In this document: positions 789 through 59,083 of the stretch, in pieces
Layout of the letters: each line of letters starts with the position of its first letter
Position numbering within the stretch: position 1 is the stretch's first letter
Assembly: GCA_018816335.1 (NCBI GenBank)
Contig: JAHIVP010000024.1
Coordinates: 1-60,170, forward strand
Source: Nanobdellota archaeon
Lineage (GTDB): Archaea > Nanobdellota > Nanobdellia > Pacearchaeales > GW2011-AR1
Reading direction: 5' to 3'
DNA: 60,170 bases
The notes under the pieces: model-generated
Told to the model about the DNA's origin: nothing
The model's input: the letters and a program-made list of their open reading frames with translations, nothing else
The model's database searches: none
Program-made: the position numbers and the translations under genes

Positions 789-826
789 TTTTTATTATTA
801 ACTTTTGGAATTTACTTCATATAAAA

Positions 827-894
827 CCTAACCCAACTCCCGACCCCACTCGTTGGTCGTTTTTTATCGCCGAGTGAAATCGCTCGCCCACCCT
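827..894 (-). repeat. GC-rich element GCE-1 (short form)
   Basis: The + strand reads cctaacccaactcccgaccccactcgttggtcgttttttatcgccgagtgaaatcgctcgcccaccct. Related copies lie at 1755-1854, 41611-41674 and 57606-57707. The strand given is the G-rich strand. Confidence 0.8.
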
Positions 895-980
895 GATAGC
901 TCTAGTAAATATTTATTAATAATCCACCAATTCATCCCGCAGATTTTGATTTAATTGATAATTATTTTTATTAATTAATC

Positions 981-1703: not shown

Positions 1704-1741
1704 TTTTATTTTGGTGTTTTGTTTAATTTGTCTAAAATAAT

Positions 1742-1866
1742 TCCCTATAATAAACCCTCCCAACTCCCGACCTCACTTGTTGATCGTTTTTTATCGCTGG
1801 TGACTGCAAGTCTCGCACCTGCTCGACACTGACCTGAAATCACTCGCCCACCCTTTATTAGGGAAT
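1742..1866 (-). repeat. GC-rich element GCE-2 (long form) with flanking AT-rich stem
   Basis: The core 1755-1854 is nearly identical to 57606-57707. Flanks tccctataataaa / tttattaggga are inverted repeats. It sits between S27e and the aIF2-alpha start. Confidence 0.85.
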
Positions 1867-1908
1867 TATTAATTAGATTTTTTTATCTTCTCTGATGTTT
1901 TTAATTCT

Positions 1909-4329: not shown

Positions 4330-5025
4330 ATGGGAAGATGGAAATCTATTAGTCCTTGGTCGCAAGATCATATGTATAAGCAGATTGTTAGAGAGGGTGG
4401 TTTTATTCTAACTAGGGGGGCTATGAATCTTAGTTTTGGAGATCCAGAAAATCATGCTCTTGGAGGGAGAGTAGCGATTCCTTCGTTTCAATTATTAAAG
4501 GTCCATAAAAAACATCCTATGAGGGTTATTGATTCTGGAAAAATTACAATTCGTCCTCAAGGGGATACTCGTTTAATGGGTCGAATTGTTGATGATCCTG
4601 ATCCTACTATTTATGATTCAGCGTCTGTTTTTGTTCTTCCTTTTCCTTATTCGTCTGATTCGGATCGAGATCTTAACCAAACTTTTGGAGGAGTGTGGGA
4701 ACTTTCTTGTGGCATGAAAAGAGAAGATAGAACAGAAACTGGAGTTACTGTTTTGTATCATGGAAAAAGGGGCCTTAGTATTGATGGTACTGAGGCTAGA
4801 ACTTGGAGTGTGGTTACCCCTTCTCAGATTCCAGATCATCTATTTCAATGGTTTTACCAAGGACAGAAGATTAATGCTTTTGATCAAGATAGACAAATTT
4901 ACACTCCCGCAGGTAGATTTGAATTTCCTGCAGAAATGGCTAGAGATTTAACAACTGGAGTATCTAGAAAATTAGAGAAAAGATTTAAGACAAGAATGAT
5001 TAGAGATACTACTTCTGGTTTTTAG
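4330..5025 (+). CDS. Lys-poor orphan protein B (function unknown)
   Basis: 231-aa ATG ORF preceded by a TATA-like tract (ttatataaattattaaaaa). Composition is atypical for the window. The 3' end overlaps the convergent Bud32 stop by 17 nt. Confidence 0.7.
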   Translation: MGRWKSISPWSQDHMYKQIVREGGFILTRGAMNLSFGDPENHALGGRVAIPSFQLLKVHKKHPMRVIDSGKITIRPQGDTRLMGRIVDDPDPTIYDSASVFVLPFPYSSDSDRDLNQTFGGVWELSCGMKREDRTETGVTVLYHGKRGLSIDGTEARTWSVVTPSQIPDHLFQWFYQGQKINAFDQDRQIYTPAGRFEFPAEMARDLTTGVSRKLEKRFKTRMIRDTTSGF

Positions 5026-5839
5026 TAGATCGTTTATATCTTCCTCTTTTTTCAACTGCTTCTAATCTTTCTAGAACTTGTTTAGAATTTTCTGAGTTTT
5101 TATATCCTTTTAGAAACGATTTGAGTAGAGCTTCATAATTTTGAAAGTGTTTTGCTTCTAGAGCTTGTTTTAGTAGATGGATGTCTACTGCTTTGTCTTC
5201 TAATTTATTTGAGATATATCCTAGGCCGAAGTCTATTAAGAATATTTTGAAATTTTCTGTAACCCCATATAAAACCCTCCCTCCCTCCCTTTTAATGGTG
5301 TTACTTTTTTTATTAAGTGAAGAAGGTTTTAATGATAGGTTGTGAGATTTGGTAGATTTAGTATCAATAGGATTATTTACTAGAATCATATTTGATGTTG
5401 TGAGGTCTCCGTGGATTATATCTGAATCGTGGAGTTTAGCAATATCTTGGCCTATTATTTGGGCTATTTTTTCTTGGGTTAATTTTTTTGCAACACTATG
5501 TAAAACCCTCCCGCCCTCCCTTTTAATAGTGTTGCTATTATTTTGAGATAATTTAATTTCTTTTTCAGTTGGATAATCATTGAGATTAGTTGATAGTTTT
5601 TGTCCATCTATAAATTCCATTTTTATTTCTGAAGTATTATTTGTTGAAATTAGGTTTGGAACATTGATTATTTTAGAAGCTTTTTCTAGAATTTTGTATT
5701 CTGATTTTGTTCTTCTTTTTCTTAGTTGGGTGTCTAGTTGAGGGTGTCTATATGATTTTTTTATTCTGTGTTTTAGAATTGTATTATTTGATTTAGAAAT
5801 TATTGCTTCTGCTCCTCTTCCTATTATTTCTTTACTCAT
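5009..5839 (-). CDS. bud32: Bud32/PRPK-type (Kae1-associated) protein kinase carrying two in-frame repeat insertions
   Basis: IGRGAEA N-terminus, catalytic loop HGDLTTSNMIL and LIDFGLG motif. It is 276 aa and encodes the peptide SNTIKREGGRVL twice, each from a PAL-C palindrome. Confidence 0.8.
   Translation of the reverse strand: MSKEIIGRGAEAIISKSNNTILKHRIKKSYRHPQLDTQLRKRRTKSEYKILEKASKIINVPNLISTNNTSEIKMEFIDGQKLSTNLNDYPTEKEIKLSQNNSNTIKREGGRVLHSVAKKLTQEKIAQIIGQDIAKLHDSDIIHGDLTTSNMILVNNPIDTKSTKSHNLSLKPSSLNKKSNTIKREGGRVLYGVTENFKIFLIDFGLGYISNKLEDKAVDIHLLKQALEAKHFQNYEALLKSFLKGYKNSENSKQVLERLEAVEKRGRYKRSTKNQK
5259..5304 (+). repeat. PAL-C palindrome inside Bud32 (copy 1)
   Basis: gtaaccccatataaaa-CCCTCCCTCCCTCCC-ttttaatggtgttac. 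The arms are inverted repeats. The C-tract at 5275-5289 reads GGGAGGGAGGGAGGG on the coding (-) strand. Confidence 0.85.
5490..5535 (+). repeat. PAL-C palindrome inside Bud32 (copy 2)
   Basis: gcaacactatgtaaaa-CCCTCCCGCCCTCCC-ttttaatagtgttgc. The architecture matches copy 1 but the arm sequence differs. Confidence 0.85.
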
Positions 5840-8408: not shown

Positions 8409-8459
8409 TTAACAACCCCATAAAAACCTAAAACCCCCCACCCTTTAAATGGGATTGTT
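8409..8459 (+). repeat. PAL-C palindrome (variant loop aaaaccccccaccct)
   Basis: Arms taacaaccccataaa / tttaaatgggattgtta form an inverted repeat around a C-tract. It lies between the SRP54 start and orphan C. Confidence 0.7.
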
Positions 8460-8466
8460 AAAAGAA

Positions 8467-12580: not shown

Positions 12581-12683
12581 GCCTCCGTAGCTCAGTGGTA
12601 GAGCAATTGCCTTGTATGTGACTAAGGCTGAAATTAGTCAAAAAGAGAGCAATAGGTCGCAGGTTCAAATCCTGCCGGGGGCT
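12581..12683 (+). tRNA. tRNA-Thr (anticodon TGT) with an intron of ~31 nt after position 37
   Basis: Acceptor GCCTCCG/CGGGGGC, D arm GCTC-AGTGGTA-GAGC, anticodon stem ATTGC...GCAAT. The intron contains the helix GACTAA/TTAGTC. T arm GCAGG-TTCAAAT-CCTGC. Confidence 0.8.
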
Positions 12684-13726: not shown

Positions 13727-13845
13727 TTTTCTGTAATTAGGTTTAATGTTTTTGGTTTTTAAAGTTTGTGTTTGTATGGACTGGTAGTTATTTTTATAAA
13801 TGCTTTTAATTTATTAGTTACATCCTATATATTATTTTTATGTTT

Positions 13846-13913
13846 GGGTTTTTATCCCACCCTCCACACCCTATTACCAGCAACTTCGTTGCTGGATATA
13901 TTATGAAAAACCC
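13846..13913 (+). repeat. PAL-C variant with an extra inner hairpin
   Basis: Outer arms gggttttt/aaaaaccc, C-tract tcccaccctccacaccct, and an inner hairpin ccagcaa-cttcgt-ttgctgg. It lies upstream of the L44e start. Confidence 0.6.
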
Positions 13914-16953: not shown

Positions 16954-18819
16954 ATGTTTTTTATGATATCTAAAAGAGGACAGGTCGCTATATTCATAAT
17001 TATAGCAATTATTATAGTTGCAGGAGTAATTGTGTATTTTCTTGTAAAAGATAGGACAAGTTATTCTAATATTCCTAGTGAATTTCAGCCTGTTGAAGAT
17101 TATTTTCTAAGTTGTATTGAAGATATAGTAAGAAATGGGAAAGATGTTATGGGGACGCAAGGAGGATATATTGAGCCTCCAAATTTTGACCCGGGTAGTG
17201 ATTTTATGCCTTTTTCATCTCAATTAAATTTTTATGGTTGGCCTGTTCCGTATTGGTATTATAAATCAGGTGTCAATATAATTAAAGAGCAAGTTCCATC
17301 GAAAGATGATATGGAGGAAGAGTTGAATAAATATATTCAAGATAGAGTTGGTGATTGTGATTTTGGAGATTTTGTTGTAGAGGGTTTTATTGTTGAAAGA
17401 GAGGAAGGTGTTAGAGTTCAGACAGATATTGGTGTTAATCAAATTTTTGTTAATTTGAATGCTCCTATTAATGTTAATAGAGGAGAGGAGAGTGTTAGAA
17501 TAGAGGAACATGAAGTTCAGTTAGATACAAAGTTTGGTAAGTTTTATGATTTGGCTGTTGATATTTATGATTATGAGAAAGAGGAAATGTTTTTAGAAAA
17601 TTATGCTGTTGATGTTTTGAGATTGTATGCTCCTGTTGATGGTTTTGAAATTCAGTGTAGTCCGTTGATTTGGGCTTTTAATGAAGTAGTTGATGAGGTT
17701 AAACAAGGGTTGAGTGGAAATATGCAAGCAATTAGATTGACAGGAGATTATTATGATGATTCTCATGATTATTTTGTTCAGGATTTGAGAAGTGATGAGG
17801 CTGTTAGATTTTTGTATGATCCAAGTTGGCCTACTAGAATTGAAGTTTGGCCTTCTGATAGTGGGATTTTAATTGCAGAACCTGTAGGAACTCAAGAAGG
17901 TTTAGGAATTTTAGGATTTTGTTATGTTCCTTATCATTATGTTTATGATTTGAATTATCCTGTTTTAGTTCAAATTTATGATGAAGCAGAATTGTTTCAG
18001 TTTCCTGTTGCTGTTATAATTGATAAGAACAGACCTAGGGAGGCTTTGCCTGCAACAGAAGTTAGAGATGCTACAACTGAATTGTGTAAATATAGAAATT
18101 CTAGAATGGAAGTTTATACTTATGATACTGGATTGAATCCTGTTGAAGCAGATATTAGTTTTAAATGTATTTCTGATAGTTGTTATATTGGAAAGACACA
18201 GATTAGTGGTAGTGATGCTAAGTTATCTGAGAATTTTCCTCAGTGTGTGAATGGACATGTTGTTGCTAAAGCAGAGGGTTATGTAAATAAAAAGCATCAG
18301 GTTTCAACTAATGTTGATGGACAGGTTGTTGATATTGTTTTAGATAAAATATATGATATTGGTCTTAATTTGAAGTTGGATGGGAGAGATTCAGATAGTA
18401 TGGCTGTTATTTATTTTCAATCTGAAGATTATTCTGCAACTGTATCTTGGCCTCAGCAAAGAAGTATAAGTTTAGCTCAAGGAGATTATAATGTAACTGT
18501 TTATGTTTATCAAAATTCTAGTTTGAAATTAGAAGGTTATACAACTGAAAAATGTACTGATGTTCCTAGAGAGGGTTTGTTGGGAATGTTTGGTTTAACA
18601 ACTGAAAAGTGTTTTGATATTTCTGTTCCTGATCAAATAGTTTCAATGAGTTTGTCAGGAGGGGGAAAAACTCAAGAATATATTGTTGATACAAATCTTA
18701 GAGATTATAGTGTTATAGAAATATCTGTAGAGAGTATGCCAAAACCTACAACCCTTGAAGAGCTACAAGATAATTATAATTTGTTTGAATATAAAAGAGT
18801 TTATGTTGAATATAAATAA
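16954..18819 (+). CDS. large extracellular protein with a type IV pilin-like (class III) signal peptide
   Basis: N-terminus MFFMISKRGQ-VAIFIIIAIIIVAGVIVYFLV has KRG(Q) followed by ~20 hydrophobic residues, as in archaeal prepilin-peptidase substrates. The remaining ~590 aa are Cys-containing and acidic. No family recognised. Confidence 0.6.
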   Translation: MFFMISKRGQVAIFIIIAIIIVAGVIVYFLVKDRTSYSNIPSEFQPVEDYFLSCIEDIVRNGKDVMGTQGGYIEPPNFDPGSDFMPFSSQLNFYGWPVPYWYYKSGVNIIKEQVPSKDDMEEELNKYIQDRVGDCDFGDFVVEGFIVEREEGVRVQTDIGVNQIFVNLNAPINVNRGEESVRIEEHEVQLDTKFGKFYDLAVDIYDYEKEEMFLENYAVDVLRLYAPVDGFEIQCSPLIWAFNEVVDEVKQGLSGNMQAIRLTGDYYDDSHDYFVQDLRSDEAVRFLYDPSWPTRIEVWPSDSGILIAEPVGTQEGLGILGFCYVPYHYVYDLNYPVLVQIYDEAELFQFPVAVIIDKNRPREALPATEVRDATTELCKYRNSRMEVYTYDTGLNPVEADISFKCISDSCYIGKTQISGSDAKLSENFPQCVNGHVVAKAEGYVNKKHQVSTNVDGQVVDIVLDKIYDIGLNLKLDGRDSDSMAVIYFQSEDYSATVSWPQQRSISLAQGDYNVTVYVYQNSSLKLEGYTTEKCTDVPREGLLGMFGLTTEKCFDISVPDQIVSMSLSGGGKTQEYIVDTNLRDYSVIEISVESMPKPTTLEELQDNYNLFEYKRVYVEYK

Positions 18820-18820
18820 A

Positions 18821-21800
18821 ATGAAAGATATAAAAATAAATAAGATTGGAATTTTTTTAGTTGGAGCTATGTTTATTTTAACTTTGTGTATGCCTTTTAT
18901 TTTTGCAATTGATAGTTCTTCTACAACAACTTCTACATTTCCTAATAATCCTTCTTCAAGTTCAAGTGTTTCTGGGTTTTCAGGAACTAGTCCTTCATAT
19001 TCTAATTTTCCTGATAATAGTCAGTTTTGGCCGATTTATGGGAATCAAGATACTTGTTATGCTACTCAAGATTTTATTTTGAATATTCCCCTAGGTGGTT
19101 GTAGTCCTGCAATTGTTAGGAGTGATTTATTAGAAGAACAACCTGTTCCTGTTTTTTGTAAAGTTGATGCTTTGAAAATTAATCCTTTTGCTGATATTTC
19201 TATGATTAAGGGTGTGACTTTTTCTGCGAGAAGTTATCCTCCTGAAGTTTCTGGAATTGGGTTTCATCCAATAAGAAGTGCTTTAAGAGTTCAAGATCAG
19301 GTTTTAGATACTCCGTTTTATGGAAGTATTGGTTATTTGGTTGTTACATTAAAAAGAATTCCTGCTGAGAGAGATATGCCTGAGTGGATACAAGTTAATT
19401 TGACTGGAAAGTTAGGGTATGATGTTAGTAGATATGCTGGGCCAGGACAAAATGAATATTATTTGGAATTGTTGACTGAAGATGAATGGAAGCAGAAGTA
19501 TAAAGATAATAATTTATTGAAAGGAAAAGCTTATATTCGAGCTGAGTGGATTGAAAATGATGAAGCTGAGATTGGATTGTATGATGAGAATTTACAGCAA
19601 GTTCAAAAAGTTAAGTTGAAACAAGGACAGACTTCTGATGATATTTATATGCCTGGATTTTATTGTAAAGTTGGTTTGAGAATTACATTGAGTGCTATGA
19701 CTTATGCTGATAGAGAAGCAAAGTTAGAAATTGATAATAATATTCAGTGGGTAAGAGTTGGAACAAGATTTTTAGATGATAGATGTAGGGTTTTGGGAAT
19801 TGATGTTGCTAATAAAAAAGTTAGAATTGAGTGTGCTCCTCCTAGAAAATCTTTTGAATTGAAATTGAAAGGTTCAAGTGGAACTGAGATTAATAATGGA
19901 ATTAATAATATTAATGTTAATGTAGGTGAGGTTGTTAATCCTAGTGAGCAAGATGTTACTAAGAGATATTGGTCTGTTTATTCAGGAAGTGTTCCTAAAA
20001 ATTTAGATGCAACAGAAGAGAAGTTTTTGATATTAGTTAAAAATGTTTCTTCAAGTCATATTGAAAATTTAAGAGTTAAACAATCTACTTTGAGTGCTAT
20101 AACTACTAAAATTGAGAGAATTAGTGCGAAGACTCAACAAGAATATTTGAATAAACTTTTAGAGATAAAAGATGTTTTTGGAAATAATTTTGATGTTAAT
20201 AATATTAAACTTTTAAAAGTAGGTGAGAAGGATTCTGAGTCTGGATTTATTTATAATAAACCAACTTCTGGTCCTGATAAAGATTTTTCAGGTGGAAGTA
20301 ATCCTAATGCTGGTAGAATTTTGAATGAGTATTATAATGAAGCAAAAGCAACAGCTGAGAATTTAGATCAGATGTATGGTGGAGAGGCTTGTGTTGAAGG
20401 AAAATGTGGGGAAGTTGGTTTGAGAGAGTTAGTTCAGTTGTCAGGAGCTATTGGAAAACAATATACTAGAAATCAGATTAATCAGAGATTAGGTGAAGGA
20501 TATAATGTTGGTTTAGCAAATGATAATGTTGATACTAGTGATGCTTCGATTCAATTTGAACTTGATGGGAGATTTCATACTGTTAGATTGTTAGATGTTA
20601 AAGATAGTGCTCAGTCTGGGAATTATGGGGATTTTACAATTGTTGAAGGTGGAACAAGTAAACCAAAGAGGATTGGAATTGGGCAGTATATTGATAATCA
20701 AGCATTGATTAAATTAATTGATTTGAAAGATGATAGAGCTACTTTTGAATATTTTGAAAAAGATCAGAATAGTAATGATATTAGGAAGACTTCTGTTGTT
20801 CAGTTATATTCAACTGTTAATATTTTAGGAAATGTTATAACTTTTAATGATGTTAAGTTGAAGAAGGTTGCTAAGGTTAGTGTGAATACAAATTCTCCTG
20901 CTGGTTTTACAGATACTAATTTTACTTTTAAGATTGCTATTGAGAAAAGAGCAATTGAGTTGTCTCCTAATAAGACAAGTAAGTTGATTGATAAGATTAA
21001 TAAGACAGTTCAAAAGTTGGAAGATATTAGTGAGAAATTAGGAGAGGTTGTTAAGGTTATGAAGTTAGCTTGTTTTGCAACATCTACGATTCTAACTGTT
21101 AAGACATTTTTTGAAAATTTAGGTGGAAGAGGAATGGCTAGACAAAAAGTTATGGGTTATTGGTATGATAATTGTGAGCAAGAGTCTCAGGGAGATAAGA
21201 ATTTATTTAATGCTTGTTTGAAAAATAATAATGCTCAGATTGAAGGAGATATTAATAATTATGCTGGGAATTTGCAGTCTGTTAATAATAATTTACAAAA
21301 TATTCAGAATAATAATTTGAATCCTGCTAATGGAGCTGTTGATGGGTCTAAGGCTTTGGCTGCGTATAAGATTTATATGAATAAATATGTTGGAACTACA
21401 ACATTTACTACTGAGAGTGGGAAGACAGTTTCTGTTACTGCTGATATGATTAATAGTGCTGGAACATTGCAAGAATTAAGAGATTTAGAATTAGCTGCTT
21501 TGAATTCTAAAGCTGGAGCAAGCACTGGAAAAGCAGGGAATAATGAAGGCTATGGTGTTGCAAATAGATTGCAGCAAAGAGTTGCTATTGATAATTCTAA
21601 TCAAAATGCTCAGTCAATATTTGGAAATGGGATTAGTGTTGATTTAGATTATAGTGCTAATGGAACTGTTATTAGAGGTTATCATGGGCAGAGTTGGAAG
21701 AATTTTAGAGATGCTGGATTTTCTATTTCTGGAAATGATGGAACTGTTAAAGATGAGACTCCTGCTCAAGCATTGACTGTTGGAGGTCTTTCTTATATTG

Positions 21801-24800
21801 CTATTTTAGGAAAAAGAATTTCTGGTGTTGGAAGTTATAATGCTGTTTCTTGGTATGAAGTTGGAAGTGGTAAATCATTAACTGCTCCTCTTAGTAGAGA
21901 AGAGGTAGATAGAAGGGGATTGAGTAGTATTCAGTTTGCTCGAAGAGATCCTAGTGCTTTGGTTAATCCGTGGAGAAATCCAACAGTAAGATTTTATGAT
22001 TCTGGGAATTTTAAGGGATTGCCTGCTGTTGTTCCTTTAGGAAGGAGATTAGGAGAACAAGAAGGTTGGTATGTTGCTACTATGCCTTTTAGTATTGAGA
22101 ATAAAAATACAAAGGCTTATACTGATGCTGGACAGATGAGGAATTTTTATATTTGTAATGTTGGAGCAAATGGTTTAGAGGAATTTGAAAGTTCTTTAAG
22201 AGATGATCAGTGTCAGTTTATTAATTTAGATATTAGAAAACCTGATAATGTTTTGGGATTGCCTGTTCAGAAATCTAATGAGTTGGTTGATAAATCTGAG
22301 AAAGCTTTGCGTCAGGCTGCTGAAGGTTTTGCTAATATAAAACCTGGTGAAGATGCTTATATAACTATTTTAGATGGAAGATATAAAGTTGGGAAGCCTG
22401 GAAGAAAGAAGGGAGGAAGGTGTCAGGATTTTATGTCTCCTCAAGATTGTTATATTTTGTTTAATGTTTGTGATCCTGTTATTTGTCCTCCATCAAGATG
22501 TGATATGGGTGGGGCTTATCCTGTAGATGATGTTATTCAGACAGGAATTGTTGGGAGTATTGCTTTATGTTTACCAAATATTAAAGAGGGAATTATGGTT
22601 CCTGTTTGTATTTCTGGTATTCATGCTGGTATAGAAGGTTTGACAAGTATTTTGAGGGCAACTAGAGATTGTATGGTTGAGAGTTTGAAGACAGGACAGA
22701 ATATTGGGATATGTGATGAGATTCAATCAATTTATCTTTGTGAGTTTTTATGGAGACAGTTAACTCCAATTATGAATATGTTGATTCCTGCGATGATTGA
22801 AAGTACTTATGGGCAGGGGACAAGGGGAGGAGGGGAATATTTGACTGTTCAGAATGCATGGCAAAATGTCGAGGGTTCAATTGATTATATGACTAACCAA
22901 TATGCTGTAAATGCTTTTAATGCTTTCAAAGCTCGAAGTACTGATGATGTTGGTGGAGAAATATGTAAGATGTTTATATCAGCAAGATATCCTTCTAATA
23001 AAGATTTTTTTGATGCTTTGCTTGAGCCAGAGAGTCCTCATCAATTTTCTGCTTGGTTCCATGAGATTCCTTATAGTGAGGCAACAACTCCTGCAACTTC
23101 ACAATATAAAGTTTATTATCATATTTATGCTGGAAAAAATAGAGGTGTTTATTATTCTGTTTATTTAAGAGATCCTCCTGAATCAAGTCAGTATAATGTT
23201 CAGCCTATGATTGTGGTTGATACTGGATTTATTGGAGTTGGACAGTATGCTGATCAGGCTAAAGATTTTACAGCTCCTAAAGGATATAAGCAATTGTGTG
23301 TTAGAATAGATAATAAGGAAGAGTGTGGGTTTAAGCAAGTTTCAAGTGATTTTGCTTTGAATATTATTAAAGATACTTATGCTAGTGAGCAAGCGACTCA
23401 GAGGGCGACTTCAACTCAGACTTGTGTTGGTGGGACAGCAAGTATTTATGCGTTTTCTTCTTTAAATATTCAGGAAGGAGCACAAGAAGCTTTGAATCCT
23501 GAAATGGGGAAGAGAGGAATTGTTAGGGTTTGTGCAACTGATAATCCTGGGAAATCTACTAATGCTGCTAGATGGACTGATGTTGGTGTTTGTGATGAAC
23601 CTGATATGAAGTGTTGGCTTGATACAGATTCTGTTAAAAATGCTATCACAGCTAGGAATATAGAGAACCAGACTTTGCAAGCTGCTGGATTTAATGTAAC
23701 TCAATATTTTGATTCAACCGGAGTTTATACTCCTCAATATACAAATAGTATGTTGGTTAATTTGAAAATTAAACTTGCTGAAATTAATTTTAATTCAGCT
23801 TATGGTGAGAGATTAGTTAATGAAGGTGGGACAAGTGCTGCTGGTTATTCAGAAACTGAGTTTGGAAGATTGATTAGAGATATTAAGGACTTACAAGAAA
23901 GAGCTCATAATAATAATTATAAGGCTCGGGCAATGTTGTTAGAGTTCCAGGCATATGAGAGAGCTGTTAGAGCTGTTTATTTGAAATATTTTGGTAAAGA
24001 GCATGATGTTGAACATGCTCCTGTTACTTCTGGGGATTCTGCAACTGAGGGGGTCTATGGGTTGAGATCAGAAGATTTTAATGCTGGAGAGCAGAGAGTT
24101 ATTGCTGGAATAAAAATATATTCTGGAGAAGTGTATACTGGTATTTTTATTGTTAGACATGTAAATGAGGAGATTATATATATTACTGATGGTAATTTGC
24201 CTAGAAGTATTGGGAGAGTTATAAATGGTGTATTGGACATTAATATTAATCAAATTCCTGAAAGTAAAATTAATATTAAAAAATATGCTGCAGCAGTTGA
24301 TAATGCTAGAGTAGATTTAAATGTATTAAGTATTGTCTTGGCTGCTTCGAGTAGTTCAAGTGGTGGAAGTTCGACATCAAGTACATCAACAAGTGGAACA
24401 GGAACTCAAACTCCTGAGAATATAATTAAAAGTTTTAATAGGTATCCTTATTTTGATAGTTATAAAAGATTTCTTGTTAATTTAGGAAACGATGAAAATG
24501 GAAATGTTGTTGGAGTTTATGCTTTGGATTCAAGTAGAAATTTGGTTTGGAGTTCTGATGGAAGTGATTTTACAAGTGTTGAAGCTGATATTGCTAATGG
24601 TGATGCTTGGAAGACTCAGTTGAAAGGAGAGTTACTTGATTTGTTTAATAGACAGTTGACTTTGATTCCTAGTGAGATTTTAGTTGGAGATGAATTAATA
24701 GATAAGAATGGAGTATTTTATGTTGTTGATGTTGCTAGAGAGATTGAGGGAACTGTGGGAAGAGTTTTTTTTATACATAAGTTTGATGATAGTAGTAAAA

Positions 24801-24874
24801 CAATTACTTTTAGGTGGGAAGAAGAAGTTGGAATTGATGAATTGTCTCAGATATATGCTAAGAAGATGAATTGA
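18821..24874 (+). CDS. giant secreted Cys-rich protein (~2017 aa)
   Basis: The ATG at 18821 follows the upstream stop by one nt. Signal peptide MKDIKINKIGIFLVGAMFILTLCMPFIFA, Ser/Thr-rich linkers (SSSTTTS; SSSSSGGSSTSSTSTSGTGT), and a Cys-dense segment CQDFMSPQDCYILFNVCDPVICPPSRCD. The tracked 18755 start is a TTG extension. Confidence 0.7.
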   Translation: MKDIKINKIGIFLVGAMFILTLCMPFIFAIDSSSTTTSTFPNNPSSSSSVSGFSGTSPSYSNFPDNSQFWPIYGNQDTCYATQDFILNIPLGGCSPAIVRSDLLEEQPVPVFCKVDALKINPFADISMIKGVTFSARSYPPEVSGIGFHPIRSALRVQDQVLDTPFYGSIGYLVVTLKRIPAERDMPEWIQVNLTGKLGYDVSRYAGPGQNEYYLELLTEDEWKQKYKDNNLLKGKAYIRAEWIENDEAEIGLYDENLQQVQKVKLKQGQTSDDIYMPGFYCKVGLRITLSAMTYADREAKLEIDNNIQWVRVGTRFLDDRCRVLGIDVANKKVRIECAPPRKSFELKLKGSSGTEINNGINNINVNVGEVVNPSEQDVTKRYWSVYSGSVPKNLDATEEKFLILVKNVSSSHIENLRVKQSTLSAITTKIERISAKTQQEYLNKLLEIKDVFGNNFDVNNIKLLKVGEKDSESGFIYNKPTSGPDKDFSGGSNPNAGRILNEYYNEAKATAENLDQMYGGEACVEGKCGEVGLRELVQLSGAIGKQYTRNQINQRLGEGYNVGLANDNVDTSDASIQFELDGRFHTVRLLDVKDSAQSGNYGDFTIVEGGTSKPKRIGIGQYIDNQALIKLIDLKDDRATFEYFEKDQNSNDIRKTSVVQLYSTVNILGNVITFNDVKLKKVAKVSVNTNSPAGFTDTNFTFKIAIEKRAIELSPNKTSKLIDKINKTVQKLEDISEKLGEVVKVMKLACFATSTILTVKTFFENLGGRGMARQKVMGYWYDNCEQESQGDKNLFNACLKNNNAQIEGDINNYAGNLQSVNNNLQNIQNNNLNPANGAVDGSKALAAYKIYMNKYVGTTTFTTESGKTVSVTADMINSAGTLQELRDLELAALNSKAGASTGKAGNNEGYGVANRLQQRVAIDNSNQNAQSIFGNGISVDLDYSANGTVIRGYHGQSWKNFRDAGFSISGNDGTVKDETPAQALTVGGLSYIAILGKRISGVGSYNAVSWYEVGSGKSLTAPLSREEVDRRGLSSIQFARRDPSALVNPWRNPTVRFYDSGNFKGLPAVVPLGRRLGEQEGWYVATMPFSIENKNTKAYTDAGQMRNFYICNVGANGLEEFESSLRDDQCQFINLDIRKPDNVLGLPVQKSNELVDKSEKALRQAAEGFANIKPGEDAYITILDGRYKVGKPGRKKGGRCQDFMSPQDCYILFNVCDPVICPPSRCDMGGAYPVDDVIQTGIVGSIALCLPNIKEGIMVPVCISGIHAGIEGLTSILRATRDCMVESLKTGQNIGICDEIQSIYLCEFLWRQLTPIMNMLIPAMIESTYGQGTRGGGEYLTVQNAWQNVEGSIDYMTNQYAVNAFNAFKARSTDDVGGEICKMFISARYPSNKDFFDALLEPESPHQFSAWFHEIPYSEATTPATSQYKVYYHIYAGKNRGVYYSVYLRDPPESSQYNVQPMIVVDTGFIGVGQYADQAKDFTAPKGYKQLCVRIDNKEECGFKQVSSDFALNIIKDTYASEQATQRATSTQTCVGGTASIYAFSSLNIQEGAQEALNPEMGKRGIVRVCATDNPGKSTNAARWTDVGVCDEPDMKCWLDTDSVKNAITARNIENQTLQAAGFNVTQYFDSTGVYTPQYTNSMLVNLKIKLAEINFNSAYGERLVNEGGTSAAGYSETEFGRLIRDIKDLQERAHNNNYKARAMLLEFQAYERAVRAVYLKYFGKEHDVEHAPVTSGDSATEGVYGLRSEDFNAGEQRVIAGIKIYSGEVYTGIFIVRHVNEEIIYITDGNLPRSIGRVINGVLDININQIPESKINIKKYAAAVDNARVDLNVLSIVLAASSSSSGGSSTSSTSTSGTGTQTPENIIKSFNRYPYFDSYKRFLVNLGNDENGNVVGVYALDSSRNLVWSSDGSDFTSVEADIANGDAWKTQLKGELLDLFNRQLTLIPSEILVGDELIDKNGVFYVVDVAREIEGTVGRVFFIHKFDDSSKTITFRWEEEVGIDELSQIYAKKMN

Positions 24875-27513: not shown

Positions 27514-27596
27514 TAACAAGCGTTTCTGTGTTGATTTTCGCTGCAGAGTGTTCTTGTTTTTTAGGGTTAGTGGGAACTTCGGAAGATTTACAATAA

Positions 27597-27644
27597 TTTT
27601 TCCTACACAATAAACCCTCCCTCCCACCCTTTATTGTAGGAAAA
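27597..27644 (+). repeat. PAL-C palindrome
   Basis: ttttcctacacaataaa-CCCTCCCTCCCACCCT-ttattgtaggaaaa, between the convergent Sm and RNase Z genes. Confidence 0.8.
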
Positions 27645-27693
27645 AATTAACTCTAAAATTATTTTTTAATAGAAAATTTTTATGTACTTAGAA

Positions 27694-28602: not shown

Positions 28603-28611
28603 TTTGTTATT

Positions 28612-28660
28612 TTTACACCATACAAATAACCCTCCCACCCACCCTTATTTATGGTGTAAA
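28612..28660 (+). repeat. PAL-C palindrome
   Basis: tttacaccatacaaataa-CCCTCCCACCCACCCT-tatttatggtgtaaa, immediately upstream of the RNase Z start. The gene-sense strand reads GGGTGGGTGGGAGGG. Confidence 0.8.
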
Positions 28661-28726
28661 ATTTATTTATTATAGTAGTGAAAGTTTGTTTATATAATTT
28701 TGTTTTAGAATTAATTTAAACTAAAT

Positions 28727-29661: not shown

Positions 29662-30213
29662 ATGACAAAAAAAGTAATTTTGGTTCATGGATGGGGTGGA
29701 AGCCCAAAAGAAGATTGGTATAACTGGCTTAAAAAGGAGCTAATCAAAAAAGGTTATGAAGTTGAAGCCCCGGAGATGCCTGATACATTAAATCCTAAAA
29801 TTGATGCTTGGGTGGGTAAACTTGAAGAAGTATTTAAAGAATCTGAGGAAGTTTATTTGGTGGGGCATAGTATTGGTTGCCAAACTATAATGAGATTTCT
29901 TGAGAAAAATAATATTAAACTAAAAAAAGTTATACTTGTTGCTCCTTGGCTTTCTTTAACAGATGAAACTTGGGATGAAGATTATACTGAGGAAAAAGCT
30001 AAACCTTGGATTGAAACCCCTATTGATTTTGATAATGTAAAAACCAAAGCAGAGAAATTTGTGGTTGTTTATTCTGAAACAGACCCATATGTTCCTAAAG
30101 ATGACCCCTTTGTTTTGAAAGATAAATTAGGGGGGGAATTAATTAATATGGGGGATGGAGGACATTTAGATAGGGAAGAGTTTCCTGAGATTGTTGAGGA
30201 GATCGAGAAATGA
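29662..30213 (+). CDS. alpha/beta hydrolase, YdeN/RBBP9-like serine hydrolase (paralogue 1)
   Basis: ILVHGWGG.., nucleophile elbow GHSIGC, later D and H residues. About 180 aa. Confidence 0.7.
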   Translation: MTKKVILVHGWGGSPKEDWYNWLKKELIKKGYEVEAPEMPDTLNPKIDAWVGKLEEVFKESEEVYLVGHSIGCQTIMRFLEKNNIKLKKVILVAPWLSLTDETWDEDYTEEKAKPWIETPIDFDNVKTKAEKFVVVYSETDPYVPKDDPFVLKDKLGGELINMGDGGHLDREEFPEIVEEIEK

Positions 30214-30850: not shown

Positions 30851-30960
30851 GATTTTTATCCTAGTAATAACCTAAAAAATTTTATTCCACACAATAAACT
30901 CTCCCACCCACCCTTTATTGTGGAATAAAATAATCCTTGTGTTATTTAGGATAAAAATTA
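30851..30960 (+). repeat. nested PAL-C palindrome upstream of glyS
   Basis: Inner element ttattccacacaataaa-CTCTCCCACCCACCCT-ttattgtggaataaaa. Outer arms gatttttatccta / taggataaaaat. Confidence 0.8.
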
Positions 30961-32699: not shown

Positions 32700-33518
32700 A
32701 TGGAAGATTTGTTAGGTAGGTTATTGGAAACAGCAGAAGATATTGTTTTAATGAGAGATGTTCCTGCTTTAAATTCAGACCAAGTTAGTTTTGCTGTTCC
32801 TTTGAGAGGTAAATTAGCAAGGGAAGTTTTTGATGAATCTTTAACACATGATAGAGGATTACCTGAGTTTCAGAGATATTGGAGTTTTGATAAATCTAGC
32901 GGACATATTAAAGGTTTGAGTGTTTATTTAGGAACAAGATTAGATAGTAGAGTTTTGAGACCTGAAGGATTAAGAATGTTGGGTGTTAGAGAATTACAAA
33001 GTTTAGGGGGTAAAGGAAAATTAGCTGATGGGTTTTGGAGAGATGCAGGAATTGTTGTTTATTCTGCTGGAACTCCAAATCTTAATACTGCGAGAGCATT
33101 GTGTCAAAAGGGAGTTGAGGGAGAATTGGATTTGCCTTTGATATGGGGTTTTTCTGATTTGGATTATGTTCCAAAAGATGGTGGGGTTGGAATAGTTTCT
33201 ATTGAAAATCCTCAGAGGGTTATTTTAGGAGAAGAAGCTGTTAAAGTTCTTGAGGATATTGAAGCTTATCAAGGAAATAAAAAAGGTGCTTGTAGGTTGA
33301 GTCGGGGCGGGGGTGGTGATTGGGGTGCCGACTGGGTTGTTTTTGCTGATTCGGACGCTGGCTGTCTGGTGGATTGGGTTTGTGGAGAAGCCACGCGCGA
33401 AAAATTACTCCAGGCTTATAATGGATTGAGTGAGAGAGTTTATGGAGATCAAATTGAAGAGTTGCAAACAAAAAGGGATTCCTCAAGACATGAGTTTTTA
33501 GCTGAATTAGATAGATAA
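32700..33518 (+). CDS. DGR-type variable (target) protein; Lys-poor orphan H
   Basis: 272-aa ATG ORF. Residues ..GACRLSRGGGGDWGADWVVFADSDAGCLVDW.. are encoded by the variable repeat 33285-33372. The matching template encodes GACRLNRNRDGDWNANWDDFANSNANCLMA. Confidence 0.8.
   Translation: MEDLLGRLLETAEDIVLMRDVPALNSDQVSFAVPLRGKLAREVFDESLTHDRGLPEFQRYWSFDKSSGHIKGLSVYLGTRLDSRVLRPEGLRMLGVRELQSLGGKGKLADGFWRDAGIVVYSAGTPNLNTARALCQKGVEGELDLPLIWGFSDLDYVPKDGGVGIVSIENPQRVILGEEAVKVLEDIEAYQGNKKGACRLSRGGGGDWGADWVVFADSDAGCLVDWVCGEATREKLLQAYNGLSERVYGDQIEELQTKRDSSRHEFLAELDR
33285..33380 (+). repeat. variable repeat (VR) of a DGR-like cassette
   Basis: Aligned by hand to 33741-33836 (offset 456). Over 33285-33372 all 72 positions that are not A in the partner copy are identical. 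The 16 mismatches are all partner-A to G (14) or T (2). Confidence 0.8.
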
Positions 33519-33740
33519 TTATAAAAACTTATTTTTCTTTTTATGATTCCTAGCCATATGGTTAGGCCACACGTTGACTAATTAGTCCATCATTAAGGTT
33601 TATTTTAAGGCATGAAATTCAACTGCGACAATTAGTAGTGATGATCTTTTGAGGGATTGTGAATATTGAAGCAGTGGTGCTCTGTCATATTGACACTAGG
33701 AGGCTCCTTTTTAGGAGAGATTAGTTGGCTACAAAGTTGG

Positions 33741-33836
33741 GGTGCTTGTAGGTTGAATCGGAACAGGGATGGTGATTGGAATGCCAACTGGGATGATTTT
33801 GCTAATTCGAACGCTAACTGTCTAATGGCTTAAATA
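33741..33836 (+). repeat. template repeat (TR) of a DGR-like cassette (non-coding)
   Basis: This is the A-rich copy of the VR. In the VR reading frame it carries six AAY (Asn) codons and ends in TAA. It lies in an ORF-free region 223 nt downstream of the target-gene stop. Confidence 0.8.
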
Positions 33837-40351: not shown

Positions 40352-40410
40352 TAATTTTTTAATCCTATATAAAACCCTCCCTCCCTCCCTTTTTTAGGAT
40401 TAAAAAATTA
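40352..40410 (+). repeat. PAL-C palindrome
   Basis: taattttttaatcctatataaaa-CCCTCCCTCCCTCCC-ttttttaggattaaaaaatta, with 15-bp arms, upstream of the S17e start. Confidence 0.85.
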
Positions 40411-40427: not shown

Positions 40428-41459
40428 CTATATCTTCTTGAATTTTAATAAATTTTTCCATTCACTTAAAAACAACCCTGCTTTTTTAACAACTTCTCCA
40501 GGAGAGATAAATAAAACTGGAAGTTTTTCTGATGTTGATTTTTGCATTGCTACAGCAAAATCGTTTTCTGTTATTTTCTTTTTATCCTTTGCTATTATGA
40601 GGTATTCAATTTTTCCAATATCTGAGTTTATTCTTATTTTACCTTGATATTCTCTTTTTTTTGAAATTGTTTCTTCTAATAATTCTAAATCTTCTTTTTG
40701 TAATAGTTCAATTATGTCTTTAACAAAATTCTTTTCTTGTATTTTTGGAGTTGGTGGTTTTTCTGGTTCTTTTTCTTCTGTAACTTTTTCTTCTGGAGTA
40801 GATTCAATTTTTGGTTTTTCAGGAATTATTTGTTGTAGAGGTTTTTCAAATTGAGGTTTTTGTCTTGGAATTTCTTGTATTATACTTTGTTTTTCTTCTG
40901 GTTTTTTTTCTTGTATTATTTCTTTTTGTGGTTCAGTAGGAGATTCTGAAGGTGTTTGGGATGGTGTTAGTATGGTTGTTGAGGAGGGAGTAGGTTTCTT
41001 TTCTTCTGTGTTGATTCTTTCTTTAGCTTTTTCTATTATTTCTTTAGCTTTGTTTTCATCAATTGAATATATTCTCCAGTATAATTTTCCCTTGTGTTCT
41101 AATGAATAAGCAAAATCTTTTATGTTTCTTAGAGCAACTCTTATTGGAGGAATTTGAGATTCATCATTTAAAACTTGTTTTTCTTTGAGTTTTTGAAAAG
41201 CTTCTTGTTCTTTTTCTTCTAAATGTTTTGTAAAATTTTCTAATTGTGATTTATGATGGGGAATATAGTATAAAGGTGAACCTCCAACTTTTAGATTTGA
41301 TATTGTAATTTGTTTATCTCCTAAAAGTTCTGATAAAAAAGCTGATGAGAATAACATTGATAGTCCTGTCTCATTTGCAACATGAACTGGAAGGCATGGA
41401 CCTCTAGTTTTGAGAATTTCTAGAATTTTTCCTTTTTTGTCTTGGAATTTGTTTTCCAT
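40428..41459 (-). CDS. hypothetical protein with an N-terminal winged-helix-like domain and a Pro/Glu/Lys-rich linker
   Basis: The N-terminus ..ILEILKTRGPCLPVHVANETGLSMLFSSAFLSELLGDK.. looks wHTH-like. The central region is low-complexity PTPSSTT..EKKPEEK. No confident family. Confidence 0.4.
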   Translation of the reverse strand: MENKFQDKKGKILEILKTRGPCLPVHVANETGLSMLFSSAFLSELLGDKQITISNLKVGGSPLYYIPHHKSQLENFTKHLEEKEQEAFQKLKEKQVLNDESQIPPIRVALRNIKDFAYSLEHKGKLYWRIYSIDENKAKEIIEKAKERINTEEKKPTPSSTTILTPSQTPSESPTEPQKEIIQEKKPEEKQSIIQEIPRQKPQFEKPLQQIIPEKPKIESTPEEKVTEEKEPEKPPTPKIQEKNFVKDIIELLQKEDLELLEETISKKREYQGKIRINSDIGKIEYLIIAKDKKKITENDFAVAMQKSTSEKLPVLFISPGEVVKKAGLFLSEWKNLLKFKKI

Positions 41460-41470
41460 TTTTTATTTTG

Positions 41471-41524
41471 AATTTTTATCTCATATAAAACCCTCCCACC
41501 CTCCCTTTTAATGAGATAAAAATT
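41471..41524 (+). repeat. PAL-C palindrome
   Basis: aatttttatctcatataaaa-CCCTCCCACCCTCCC-ttttaatgagataaaaatt. Confidence 0.85.
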
Positions 41525-41610
41525 AATTCAATTTATTATTAACAGATAAATGGTGGTGGAGGTTATAAAGATTATTGGGGTGGAGTACTTCTTAATTTAT
41601 ACCAGGTAAT

Positions 41611-41674
41611 AACCCAACTCCCAACCACGCTCGTTGGTCGATTTTCATCGCCTCGCGTAATTGCTCGCCCTCCC
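41611..41674 (-). repeat. GC-rich element GCE-3 (short form)
   Basis: The + strand reads aacccaactcccaaccacgctcgttggtcgattttcatcgcctcgcgtaattgctcgccctccc, which aligns with GCE-1. Confidence 0.75.
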
Positions 41675-41732
41675 ATTCTTATTATGGGATAAATTAAGTA
41701 AACTTTTTAAATCTGAGATGATAGTTTATATT

Positions 41733-41936
41733 ATGATAATACCAGAATATGTTAGGGCTGATGAAATATTAGATAGTCCTCAGAGAACTGATATAGCTTC
41801 GAGAGTTAAAGAACAAATGAGAAGAGACGGGACAATGAAGAGACTTGATGAGTATATACATCGAGAGATGAAAGATTTCTGTGATTTAATGCATCAACCT
41901 GTTTGTGGATGTGATAGTTGCAGTAGGATGAGTTAA
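41733..41936 (+). CDS. Lys-poor orphan protein Q (67 aa)
   Basis: The first ATG is at 41733 (the tracked start 41661 is a TTG inside GCE-3): MIIPEYVRADEILDSPQRTDIASRVKEQMRRDG...CGCDSCSRMS. The stop overlaps the endA stop. Confidence 0.4.
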   Translation: MIIPEYVRADEILDSPQRTDIASRVKEQMRRDGTMKRLDEYIHREMKDFCDLMHQPVCGCDSCSRMS

Positions 41937-42493
41937 GGTTTAGTCCACTTAACTTCATAATAAGTAACATCTCCTTCGTCGTCAACAATAGCGATTAATA
42001 GGTTCTTTTTTGTTGAGTGTGCAACTCTGTTTTTTCCTGAGAATTCGTGCCATGTTAGAGGATCTGATTCGTGAACTGGATAAAGAATCCACTTTGCGTG
42101 ATCTTGTCCTGGTTTAACACCTTTTTCATAAACTCTAAACTCTGCTCCAAATTTTAAAGCTGTTTTTACTAAATATCCTCTTTGTCTCATATCTTTGAAT
42201 ACAATATAATTTGTATTAATTTTTTTATCTATATCTTCTATTTTTTCTTTGAATTTTCTTGCTGAGATTTTCTTTGATTTTTCTTTTATTTCCATTTTCT
42301 TTTTCTCTATTAAATATAGTGCTTCAACTAAAGAGTATTGTATTTTTTCATCTACTGGTTCTCCGAATCTTGATTTTGCATAGAGATTTTTTGCTTCTGT
42401 TGAATTTGAAGTTGCGTTTTTGCCAGAGAAAACTGCGTTTATAATTTTTGATTCTGTTTTTGATTTCTTAGTTGTTTTCTTTTTCATTACCAT
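41933..42493 (-). CDS. endA: tRNA-splicing endonuclease
   Basis: The C-terminal catalytic domain ..ALKFGAEFRVYEKG......HAKWILYPV......VAHSTKK.LLIAIVD carries the Y/H/K triad pattern. Confidence 0.85.
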   Translation of the reverse strand: MVMKKKTTKKSKTESKIINAVFSGKNATSNSTEAKNLYAKSRFGEPVDEKIQYSLVEALYLIEKKKMEIKEKSKKISARKFKEKIEDIDKKINTNYIVFKDMRQRGYLVKTALKFGAEFRVYEKGVKPGQDHAKWILYPVHESDPLTWHEFSGKNRVAHSTKKNLLIAIVDDEGDVTYYEVKWTKP

Positions 42494-51204: not shown

Positions 51205-51290
51205 AATTTTACTCCACACAATATCCCCCCACCCACCCGTTATTGTGGAATAAAATAAACTCCTCCACCATTTTAATGAGGTAAAAATTA
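51205..51290 (+). repeat. composite PAL-C palindromes upstream of alaS
   Basis: ctccacacaata-TCCCCCCACCCACCCG-ttattgtggaataaaataa has the same right arm as the copy at 30917-30935. A second C-tract ctcctccacca with an ttttaatgagg arm follows. Confidence 0.75.
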
Positions 51291-56871: not shown

Positions 56872-56933
56872 AAAATTTTAATACCTTACACAATACCCCT
56901 CCCTCCCTCCCTATTAAATAAAGTATTAAAATT
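56872..56933 (+). repeat. PAL-C palindrome
   Basis: aaattttaatac...-CCCCTCCCTCCCTCCCT-...gtattaaaattt with 12-bp outer arms, upstream of the Nre-like gene start. Confidence 0.8.
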
Positions 56934-57551: not shown

Positions 57552-57605
57552 AATACTGTCAACTTAAAGTATTATGCTTCTAAAAAATTAATAATATCTT
57601 ATGAT

Positions 57606-57707
57606 AAACCCTCCCAACTCCCGACCCCACTCGTTGATCGTTTTTTATCGCTGGTGACTGCAAGTCTCGTACCTGCTCGACACTGACCTGAAATCGCTCG
57701 CCCTCCC
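57606..57707 (-). repeat. GC-rich element GCE-4 (long form)
   Basis: Nearly identical to 1755-1854, with only a few substitutions by eye. Flanked by AT-rich partial inverted repeats. Confidence 0.85.
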
Positions 57708-57810
57708 TTTTCTAGGGTTGTTAATAAGAAGATATTTTCTAAAATATATAATAAATCAATATACTAAATTCAAAATAAGAAAATCTAATTTTTGTTAAGA
57801 TTAGGTAGGT

Positions 57811-58047: not shown

Positions 58048-58993
58048 TTGTGCACGCAGGTGACATATGTCACCCCCTAAAATAATTTAGCAAAATCAAA
58101 GTAAACCTGAGCAGGAGTTTTATTACTAAGGCTCTTATGTCCTCTGAAATGATTATATCTCATCCTAAATTCATTAATATCTTTACAGAAAGATAATTCT
58201 CTTTTAATTGTCTGAAATAATCTCTCTACCTTTCCACAAGTGGTTGGACTATGAACAGCACTACGAATATGCTTTATCCCTCTACGCCTGCACCATCTAT
58301 CGAACTTTGAATGTTTACTCTTTGATCCATAAGCAGATCCATTATCTGATAATATTTGTTTAGGTTTACCATGAATTTTTATTAGATCATCTAAGATTTT
58401 AGTCACAACTCTTGTTGTGACTCTATTAACTGCTAATAATCCAATACTATAACGAGAACAATCATCAACCACAGATATTAACCATTTATCTTTAACCTTT
58501 TGATCGCTGTGGTCTATTTGCCATAATGAGTTAGGATGTTTTCTTTCAAATCTGATATAATTATTTCTCTTCTTCTTTCTTTTAGATGGACTTGTAAGAT
58601 TATGTTTATTTAGAATTTTGTTTACAGACCAATGACTTACATTAACATAATCTTGAATTCTCTCTTGTCCCCATCCTGTTTTTTGTCTAATTTTAACGAT
58701 TTTGTTTTCTATTTCAGAAGTTATTTTTGAGTATGTTGTCTTCGGTGCTCTAGATTTATCACTTAAATCCCAATTGTCTTCATTTAACTTTTTGCTCCAA
58801 CGATATAACGTTCTTAATGTTACTTCGTAATCAAACTTTGCTTTGAGTATCCTCTTACATTGATTGTAAGAATGATGTTTTATTCTTAGTTTAAAGAACT
58901 CTTTTCTTATTTCTTCTTTTTTCATTAGATTCGCAAGTTATCACTTGCGAACTAATTTTCGGTTAGCTACTGACATATGTCAGTTGCTTCTAC
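58048..58993 (-). mobile_element. insertion sequence (~0.95 kb) encoding an rve-type DDE transposase
   Basis: Bounded by the 16-bp direct repeat attgttgttgattttt (58032-58047 and 58994-59009). Both ends carry the palindromic core TGACATATGTCA (58060-58071 and 58971-58982). Confidence 0.75.
58077..58925 (-). CDS. DDE transposase, integrase-core (rve) type, IS481/IS3-superfamily-like
   Basis: N-terminal HTH region, then LWQIDHSD (D), ILSDNGSAY (D) and GKVERLFQT (E) with typical spacing. Confidence 0.8.
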   Translation of the reverse strand: MKKEEIRKEFFKLRIKHHSYNQCKRILKAKFDYEVTLRTLYRWSKKLNEDNWDLSDKSRAPKTTYSKITSEIENKIVKIRQKTGWGQERIQDYVNVSHWSVNKILNKHNLTSPSKRKKKRNNYIRFERKHPNSLWQIDHSDQKVKDKWLISVVDDCSRYSIGLLAVNRVTTRVVTKILDDLIKIHGKPKQILSDNGSAYGSKSKHSKFDRWCRRRGIKHIRSAVHSPTTCGKVERLFQTIKRELSFCKDINEFRMRYNHFRGHKSLSNKTPAQVYFDFAKLF

Positions 58994-59083
58994 ATTGTTG
59001 TTGATTTTTATGTTCTTTTGATAATATAATAATAGTTATTATAATATAATAATGTTTATAAATTGTAGATATTTGGTTTATTT

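Follow-up and report, generated by a model that had tools for sequence, protein, structure and literature searches.

In-frame copies of a dispersed hairpin repeat in the bud32 gene of a Pacearchaeales archaeon

The bud32 gene and the two element copies within it

Positions 1 to 60,170 of the contig JAHIVP010000024.1 (assembly GCA_018816335.1; Nanobdellota archaeon, Pacearchaeales, GW2011-AR1) are referred to here as the window, and coordinates are those of the window unless another locus is named. An open reading frame (ORF) on its minus strand, 5009..5839, encodes the KEOPS kinase/ATPase Bud32, and two segments of this gene are copies of a short hairpin element that is dispersed over the window. 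A first-pass annotation of the same DNA had described the gene as an uninterrupted Bud32 of 276 aa, in agreement with what we find: the frame is open throughout, and the curated Bud32 model TIGR03724 matches it with 171.2 bits against a cutoff of 125. Its identity is further backed by ~7,300 homologues, the closest named ones coming from Pacearchaeota and Nanoarchaeota, and by an AlphaFold model whose best Foldseek matches are PRPK (6wqx) and MJ1130 Bud32 (2vwb/3en9). The catalytic motifs (HGD, N150 and DFG) are intact, with H143, D145, N150, D203, F204 and G205 invariant among 115 sequences.

The peptide SNTIKREGGRVL is found twice in this protein, at residues 102-113 and 179-190. The two occurrences are encoded by the G-rich minus strand of hairpins at 5490-5535 (copy 1) and 5259-5304 (copy 2), respectively. 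Copy 1 consists of a 10-bp stem and a 5-bp inner stem with a 1-nt bulge, carries the loop GGGAGGGCGGGAGGG (5506-5520) and encodes SNTIKREGGRVLHSVA. Copy 2 is a hairpin with the loop GGGAGGGAGGGAGGG (5275-5289) and encodes SNTIKREGGRVLYGVT. A covariance model built from 19 copies of the element matches copy 1 at 5488-5538 with 55.7 bits and copy 2 at 5258-5307 with 61.3 bits, both with E-values of ~1e-11 to 1e-12. Copy 1 lies upstream of IGQDIAKLH (residues 129-137), and copy 2 between HGDLTTSNMIL (143-153) and LIDFGLG (201-207). The repeated peptide, its coding by the G-rich strand and these placements are all as the first-pass annotation gave them. Its description of the elements as palindromes holds in part: the stems are inverted repeats, but the 15-nt loop is asymmetric and G-rich on one strand, so that the element is no true palindrome.

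Alignment with orthologues, which had been suggested as a route to the insertion boundaries, delimits an insert of 28 codons around copy 1 (5477..5560, minus strand; residues 94-121, EIKLSQNNSNTIKREGGRVLHSVAKKLT), while the exact edges of insertion are not definable. Among the aligned homologues this insert is confined to P0001 and P0002; the latter (locus L001) is the closest, at 70% identity, is the only aligned orthologue to share the insert, and has NSNTIKRVGGRVLHSVAKKL in its place. Copy 2 is housed in a hypervariable loop (5240..5380, minus strand; residues 154-200) that joins the catalytic loop to the DFG motif. Between ..SN and IDFG this loop measures 10 to 164 aa in 120 homologues. 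In 80 genome loci of other Pacearchaeota the same segment has 10 residues in 41, 11-14 in 15 and 17-91 in 22, two loci with variant motifs being left unscored.

Copy 2 is absent from L001, which carries a different element at that site, its G-rich loop enclosed by a perfect inverted repeat of 14 bp. A further locus, L018, has a G-run core there between the arms of an 8-bp inverted repeat. The N-terminus of the L001 Bud32 contains a long form of the element, translated in frame, and at both sites the Bud32 proteins of other Pacearchaeota repeatedly show peptides derived from long forms (GGRAISR..., GGRELASEVAS...). These alignments show that both Bud32 segments are insertions relative to orthologues. 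On the same comparisons, copy 2 was not inserted into a compact kinase: its host loop had been long and hypervariable in the clade beforehand. Bud32 has two or three permissive sites that were hit repeatedly. A second recurrent peptide, S.LTKSGAEQSI.SDSEP, is found in the insert between catalytic loop and DFG of several Pacearchaeota Bud32 proteins (P0025, P0034, P0037, P0054, P0065, P0080, P0095 and L039; in P0065 at the N-terminus), and hints at another translated repeat family.

An AlphaFold2 model computed from the 115-sequence alignment has a mean predicted local distance difference test score (pLDDT) of 84, a predicted template modelling score of 0.81 and 190 residues with pLDDT above 90. 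Confidence dips at the two inserts, to ~60 over residues 101-120 and below 50 over residues 165-194. By this model, both inserts lie in structurally permissive, low-confidence loops of an otherwise confident kinase, which is the outcome that the first-pass annotation had proposed to look for. Folding of the mRNA around both copies predicts the hairpins only, with no extended structure and Z-scores of ~0.

A family of strand-oriented hairpin elements

The core pattern of the element occurs 10 times in the window against 0.03 expected. The covariance model finds 11 short copies, all on the minus strand, and four copies of the long form lie on the same strand; related contigs contain 14 further copies. 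Repeat detection likewise joins the genic copies to intergenic ones (families D2, D3 and D7), the two groups having ~62 nt of nucleotide similarity and the same stem-loop architecture in common.

Read on the G-rich strand, a short copy consists of a T-run, a variable stem, AAA, GGGNGGGNGGGAGGG, TTT, the complementary stem and an A-run. The short form is ~50 nt in size, an AT-rich stem with a small bulge that closes a (GGGN)3GGG loop. In nearly all copies the 3' arm of the G-rich strand has 1-2 extra nucleotides, giving an imperfect palindrome with extrahelical bases. The stem covaries: 87% of cells are paired and 12 of the 15 pairs show double changes, a degree of pairing that none of 500 shuffles reaches, slid controls giving 38-60%. 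The loop is a canonical three-tetrad G-quadruplex motif, with four runs of G3 and 1-nt linkers. ViennaRNA with G-quadruplex terms, whose parameters are approximate, predicts a 3-tier quadruplex closed by the stem, at -48 to -53 kcal/mol compared with -9 to -14 when these terms are left out. The long form shares the AT-rich stem and outer G-runs with the short one and encloses a structured interior of 50-85 nt; the covariance model detects it too.

The segments in Bud32 might instead be ancestral or locally evolved low-complexity loops that have come to resemble the intergenic hairpins by convergence. In many Pacearchaeota the loop between catalytic loop and DFG is indeed long, rich in N, K and S, and often Gly-rich at its end. 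Convergence would, however, have to account for the ~62 nt shared with intergenic copies together with the whole stem-loop architecture, for the presence of insert 1 in just one orthologue and for the lack of copy 2 in the closest relative, and we regard it as highly improbable.

An exact-pattern scan of species-representative genomes gave 0 matches, and the covariance model finds no copy in the 80 loci of other Pacearchaeota genomes, so the short form is lineage-restricted in the available data. In a metagenome scan, true members were found only in contigs of one sample, Ga0180007. Long-form variants are present in the distant Pacearchaeota loci L026 and L030. Neither form matches an Rfam family at the gathering threshold, and allowing E-values up to 10 for the long elements and the Bud32 region yields chance-level hits only. 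Full-text literature searches gave no description of such elements in DPANN archaea. The repeat family is thus apparently undescribed.

Outside bud32, the short copies (all minus strand) lie close to the ends of genes. tRNase Z is flanked on both sides, by a copy at 28610..28663, 7 nt upstream of its ATG, and one at 27595..27648, 47 nt downstream of its stop codon. The ORF at 40428..41459 is similarly enclosed, by a copy 12 nt upstream of its ATG (41473..41523, the best-scoring member of the family) and another 21 nt downstream of its stop codon (40357..40406). Further copies lie 37 nt upstream of the ATG of alanyl-tRNA synthetase (51206..51257), in the divergent intergenic region upstream of Nre (56878..56930) and between two plus-strand genes, antisense to local transcription (30879..30932). 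A degenerate copy, found with the covariance model, lies 44 nt upstream of the SRP54 start codon (8410..8461). The long forms, also on the minus strand, are at 810..910 (AT-rich stem, outer G-runs GGGTGGG ... GGGAGTTGGG, structured interior of ~50 nt), 1736..1870 (extra internal hairpin; 36 nt before the ATG of aIF2-alpha), 41584..41704 (interior helix with compensatory changes relative to the copy at 810-910) and 57594..57735 (extra internal hairpin). Intergenic copies precede start codons by 7-47 nt and/or follow stop codons at a distance of 21-75 nt, and the genes beside them are housekeeping genes (tRNase Z, aIF2-alpha, AlaRS, Nre and SRP54). Only 2 of the 15 copies in the window are genic, though ~85% of the window is coding. 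The idea that flanked genes are mobile cassettes was rejected: those flanked on both sides are tRNase Z and aIF2-alpha, which are housekeeping genes, and one ORF without Pfam matches.

The G-rich arm is on the strand that is C-rich overall in each of the seven family-bearing contigs (28 elements counted), irrespective of the direction of neighbouring genes. GC skew and the strand of the G-rich arm are +0.26 and minus in the window, -0.34 and plus in L004, -0.23 and plus in L006, and +0.47 and minus in L012, the direction of replication being that indicated by compositional skew only. This fixed orientation suggests a replication-coupled or single-strand mechanism, or selection on the placement of G-quadruplexes. 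The compositional skew itself is strong in the window, L004, L006 and L012, and all repeat copies are oriented against it. In the window the plus strand has a GC skew of +0.42 in plus-strand ORFs and still +0.03 in minus-strand ORFs, so that the strand skew exceeds the effect of gene direction.

The structure and placement of the elements bear on a further explanation, in which the genic copies are kept for a use at the nucleic-acid level, such as a G-quadruplex or hairpin brake on bud32 transcription or translation, or an internal signal, and the peptide is a by-product. The covariation of the stem implies selection or a mechanism that preserves the hairpin, and the canonical three-tetrad loop with its 1-nt linkers has the large predicted stability given above. 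Intergenic copies are regularly placed relative to starts and stops, and the synonymous sites of bud32 residues 83-122 hardly vary between the window and L001. The copies are nevertheless unlikely to have a conserved regulatory role in bud32, since copy 2 is missing from the closest relative and other relatives have unrelated inserts or none. Orientation, moreover, tracks the chromosome strand and not gene direction, and genic copies are rare compared with intergenic ones. On balance we consider retention for such a use unlikely.

Two further observations concern structures similar to the family. Where L007 has a short element at 555-605, the corresponding part of the window (13800-13900) has another small hairpin (CCAGCAAC GAA GTTGCTGG) followed by a G-run, which suggests that hairpin elements have turned over at this intergenic position. 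The sense strand of plus-strand ORFs also contains G-run islands that are not flanked by inverted repeats, at 37673-37756 and at 22806, 32398, 36377, 44905, 46365 and 54446. Some of these islands match G-quadruplex patterns; none belongs to the hairpin family. Several such sense-strand islands occur in an ORF of 2039 aa without a Pfam match at 18755-24874(+).

Probable translation of the inserts

At the site between catalytic loop and DFG, the reading frame contains no stop or frame shift in the 78 scored loci of the 80. The 22 loci with 17-91 residues at this site, together with the window and L001, make up 24 orthologues with long inserts, and all 24 inserts are open in the host frame, compared with 1 of 48 alternative sense frames, 5 of 72 antisense frames and 3.3% of shuffles. 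A sequence removed before translation would not be so constrained, and the kept frame therefore favours translation of the inserts. The short element is also found in frame in three different proteins of the lineage (Bud32, PolB and XPF), with two reading frames used, and all six genic copies seen are in frame. Compared with Pfu PolB, the family B DNA polymerase of relatives has an insertion of ~90 aa ahead of the Exo I motif, and a short copy lies within it; in a short XPF nuclease of relatives, one lies in an insertion of ~32 aa relative to Aeropyrum XPF. Taking open frames and predicted fold together, we think it likely that the inserts are translated as surface loops of Bud32.

The first-pass annotation had offered removal at the RNA level as the alternative. 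In this case the elements would be cut from the bud32 transcript by the splicing endonuclease at a (possibly relaxed) bulge-helix-bulge (BHB) motif, or lost through another RNA-level process, and the protein would be made without them. A tRNA splicing endonuclease is encoded in the window as had been reported (41933..42493, minus strand; 186 aa, with PF01974 and PF02778), a gene that bears on this alternative only, and an intron-containing tRNA is present as well. In Crenarchaeota, the protein-coding gene cbf5 is known to contain BHB introns (PMC2738675). Clean excision of insert 1, which spans exactly 28 codons, would restore the length of the orthologues.

The hairpins themselves fold as continuous stems without BHB motifs. 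The motif was taken as a 4-bp helix with a 3-nt bulge on either side, located at the segment boundaries. By this definition, the sole strict in-frame candidate around copy 1 would delete 231 nt, or 77 codons, including the catalytic loop, and copy 2 has no such candidate. Of the relaxed candidates, 18 of 48 and 17 of 62 keep the frame, which is the chance level. Across the 24 insert-bearing orthologues, motifs that would restore a 10-aa loop are not enriched (0 strict; 12 relaxed compared with 6-8 ± 5-6 at other offsets). No usable BHB geometry was thus found at the element boundaries, where the first-pass annotation had proposed to look for it. The power of this negative is limited because the tRNA that served as a control (12581..12683, plus strand, 103 nt) itself has only a relaxed motif and no strict hBHBh', so that genuine sites can escape a strict scan. 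Removal of the inserts from the RNA would leave nothing to keep them open, and yet the frame is maintained in all 24 orthologues, against 1 in 48 alternative frames, and in the six genic copies. Removal at the RNA level is accordingly an alternative that we regard as very unlikely. The control tRNA has UGU in its anticodon region and an intron of ~31 nt, the BHB of which has 3 of the 4 central pairs and an offset inner helix; it was found by Rfam and not by ARAGORN.

Ribosomes could also bypass the elements by translational hopping, as in T4 gene 60 and the byp elements of Magnusiomyces mitochondria. The latter, which PMC8211752 mentions, are GC-rich hairpin inserts in AT-rich coding sequence, a point in favour of bypassing. 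Bypassed inserts, however, break the frame or carry stops, while those in Bud32 are stop-free and in frame; bypassing is therefore unnecessary. There is also no stop after any potential take-off codon, and the only matching flanking codons are the ubiquitous AAA. We find bypassing hardly credible here.

Near-identity around copy 1

The bud32 genes of the window and L001 differ at 19% of aligned positions. Over residues 83-122, which comprise insert 1 and the 11 codons upstream of it, they differ at only 3 of 120 nt; all three differences fall in or beside the loop, and synonymous sites are almost invariant. The near-identity of residues 82-132 has P ~3e-6, for a block picked post hoc. In window coordinates the nearly identical tract covers 5474-5590, ~120 nt. 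The simplest reading, which we infer from this pattern of divergence, is that a recent recombination moved the insert and a short flank between co-occurring lineages.

A possible route to the inserts and its resemblance to known systems

We propose that copies of the dispersed ~50-nt repeat came to lie in two permissive loops of Bud32 and would be transcribed and translated with the gene, giving disordered, Gly/Arg-containing surface loops on an otherwise normal kinase. Most genic insertions would have been purged, so that only those in loops survive, and the element peptides would have no role in kinase function. Several points weigh against this proposal. A stable, G-quadruplex-prone hairpin on the sense strand should hinder transcription or translation, and its neutrality is an assumption. 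No mobilising enzyme, including a Y1/HUH transposase, was found by Pfam among the ~58 ORFs of the window, which covers only part of the genome. Neither the precise edges of the insertions nor any target-site duplications could be defined, whether from L001 or from filled and empty sites in L007 and L012, the intergenic regions being too diverged. Finally, the block around copy 1, almost invariant amid 19% divergence elsewhere, could reflect a nucleotide-level function instead of recent transfer.

The closest likeness is to the Rickettsia palindromic elements (RPEs; Ogata et al. 2000, summarised in PMC10969869), dispersed hairpin repeats through which unrelated housekeeping genes are read without loss of frame. 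The first-pass annotation had likened the Bud32 segments to these elements as tolerated surface loops, and this likeness is supported, indirectly, by the insertions relative to orthologues, the low-pLDDT loops, the open frames of all 24 long inserts and the in-frame copies in PolB and XPF. In both systems a dispersed palindromic repeat is found between genes and in frame inside unrelated housekeeping genes, at fold-tolerant sites that leave the ORF intact, in the small AT-rich genome of a host-dependent organism. The archaeal element differs in its host domain and in its size, ~50 nt (100-135 nt in the long form) compared with roughly 100-150 bp for RPEs. It differs also in architecture: its conserved part is the G-run loop, whereas the stems vary and covary, and its strand orientation is strict. 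The archaeal element is thus RPE-like by analogy: the differences in length, architecture and domain of life make sequence homology to the RPE families improbable, and it is not counted as a member.

Other known elements share some of these features. Repetitive extragenic palindromic (REP) sequences and bacterial interspersed mosaic elements (BIMEs) with their REP-associated tyrosine transposases (RAYTs), as well as the ends of IS200/IS605 insertion sequences (ISs), are likewise short, imperfect hairpins with a conserved bulge. They too lie mostly between genes, close to gene ends, and strongly favour one orientation with respect to a replication-like strand skew. REPs are normally extragenic, however, and here the loop rather than the stem is conserved and no conserved flanking tetranucleotide was identified. 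The BHB intron of cbf5 mRNA (PMC2738675) is also an extra structured segment in an archaeal protein gene, with a splicing endonuclease present; the Bud32 segments differ from it in lacking a BHB at usable positions, in a frame that is open through the segment and in belonging to a dispersed repeat. The (G3N1)3G3 loop is a canonical motif like other archaeal G-quadruplex motifs but forms the loop of a hairpin repeat, is strand-fixed and is partly translated. A survey of archaeal G-quadruplexes (PMC7565180) gives frequencies only and describes no such family. The only IS in the window, at 58049-58994, encodes a DDE transposase of the rve type (58077..58925) and has imperfect inverted repeats, ~24 nt each (58049-58072 and 58971-58994). 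The elements were considered as miniature inverted-repeat transposable elements of this IS; this was rejected, the inverted repeats being unrelated and no target-site duplication definable.

A wider proposal, which we put forward tentatively and which may well prove too broad, is that Pacearchaeota-type DPANN archaea harbour undescribed structured repeats, short and long, with covarying stems and G-quadruplex-type loops, that are oriented by replication strand, punctuate gene boundaries and have repeatedly been translated in Bud32, PolB and XPF. They would be the first archaeal RPE-like case, perhaps copied in a single-strand or replication-coupled manner, with the quadruplex being functional. 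Documented cases in which selfish or structural repeats have colonised essential genes in frame come mainly from Rickettsia. If our reading is right, the same outcome in a reduced archaeal genome would make it a general consequence of genome reduction and dispersed hairpin repeats. It would also explain part of the length variation and low-complexity inserts of DPANN proteins, with a bearing on annotation, alignment and phylogenetics. The element is a tractable candidate for studies of G-quadruplex biology or of a new mode of repeat propagation in archaea, because it combines a stem-closed G-quadruplex motif of very high predicted stability in a genome of 31% GC with strict strand placement and covarying stems.

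Other features of the window and of L001

An ORF of 231 aa without a Pfam match, at 4330-5025(+), overlaps the bud32 stop. Two genes upstream of bud32 in the window are missing from L001, and synteny between the two (L001 1187-2083) is interrupted by lineage-specific genes. L001 also has a free-standing LAGLIDADG gene between tRNA-Gln and rpS15.

A pair of sequences resembling a diversity-generating retroelement involves 33285-33380, 33549-33737 and 33741-33836. Nearly all differences between the 3' end of the ORF at 32700..33518 and a downstream copy fall on positions that are A in the downstream copy (A to G or T). The neighbourhood of the 33285-33836 pair showed no reverse transcriptase ORF. 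An RT-16 RNA (Rfam RF03019, 91 bits) lies between the 3' end of the ORF and the downstream copy. Lastly, tandem paralogous serine-hydrolase genes at 29662-30797(+) are ~72-77% identical and account for repeat families D4, D15 and D16.

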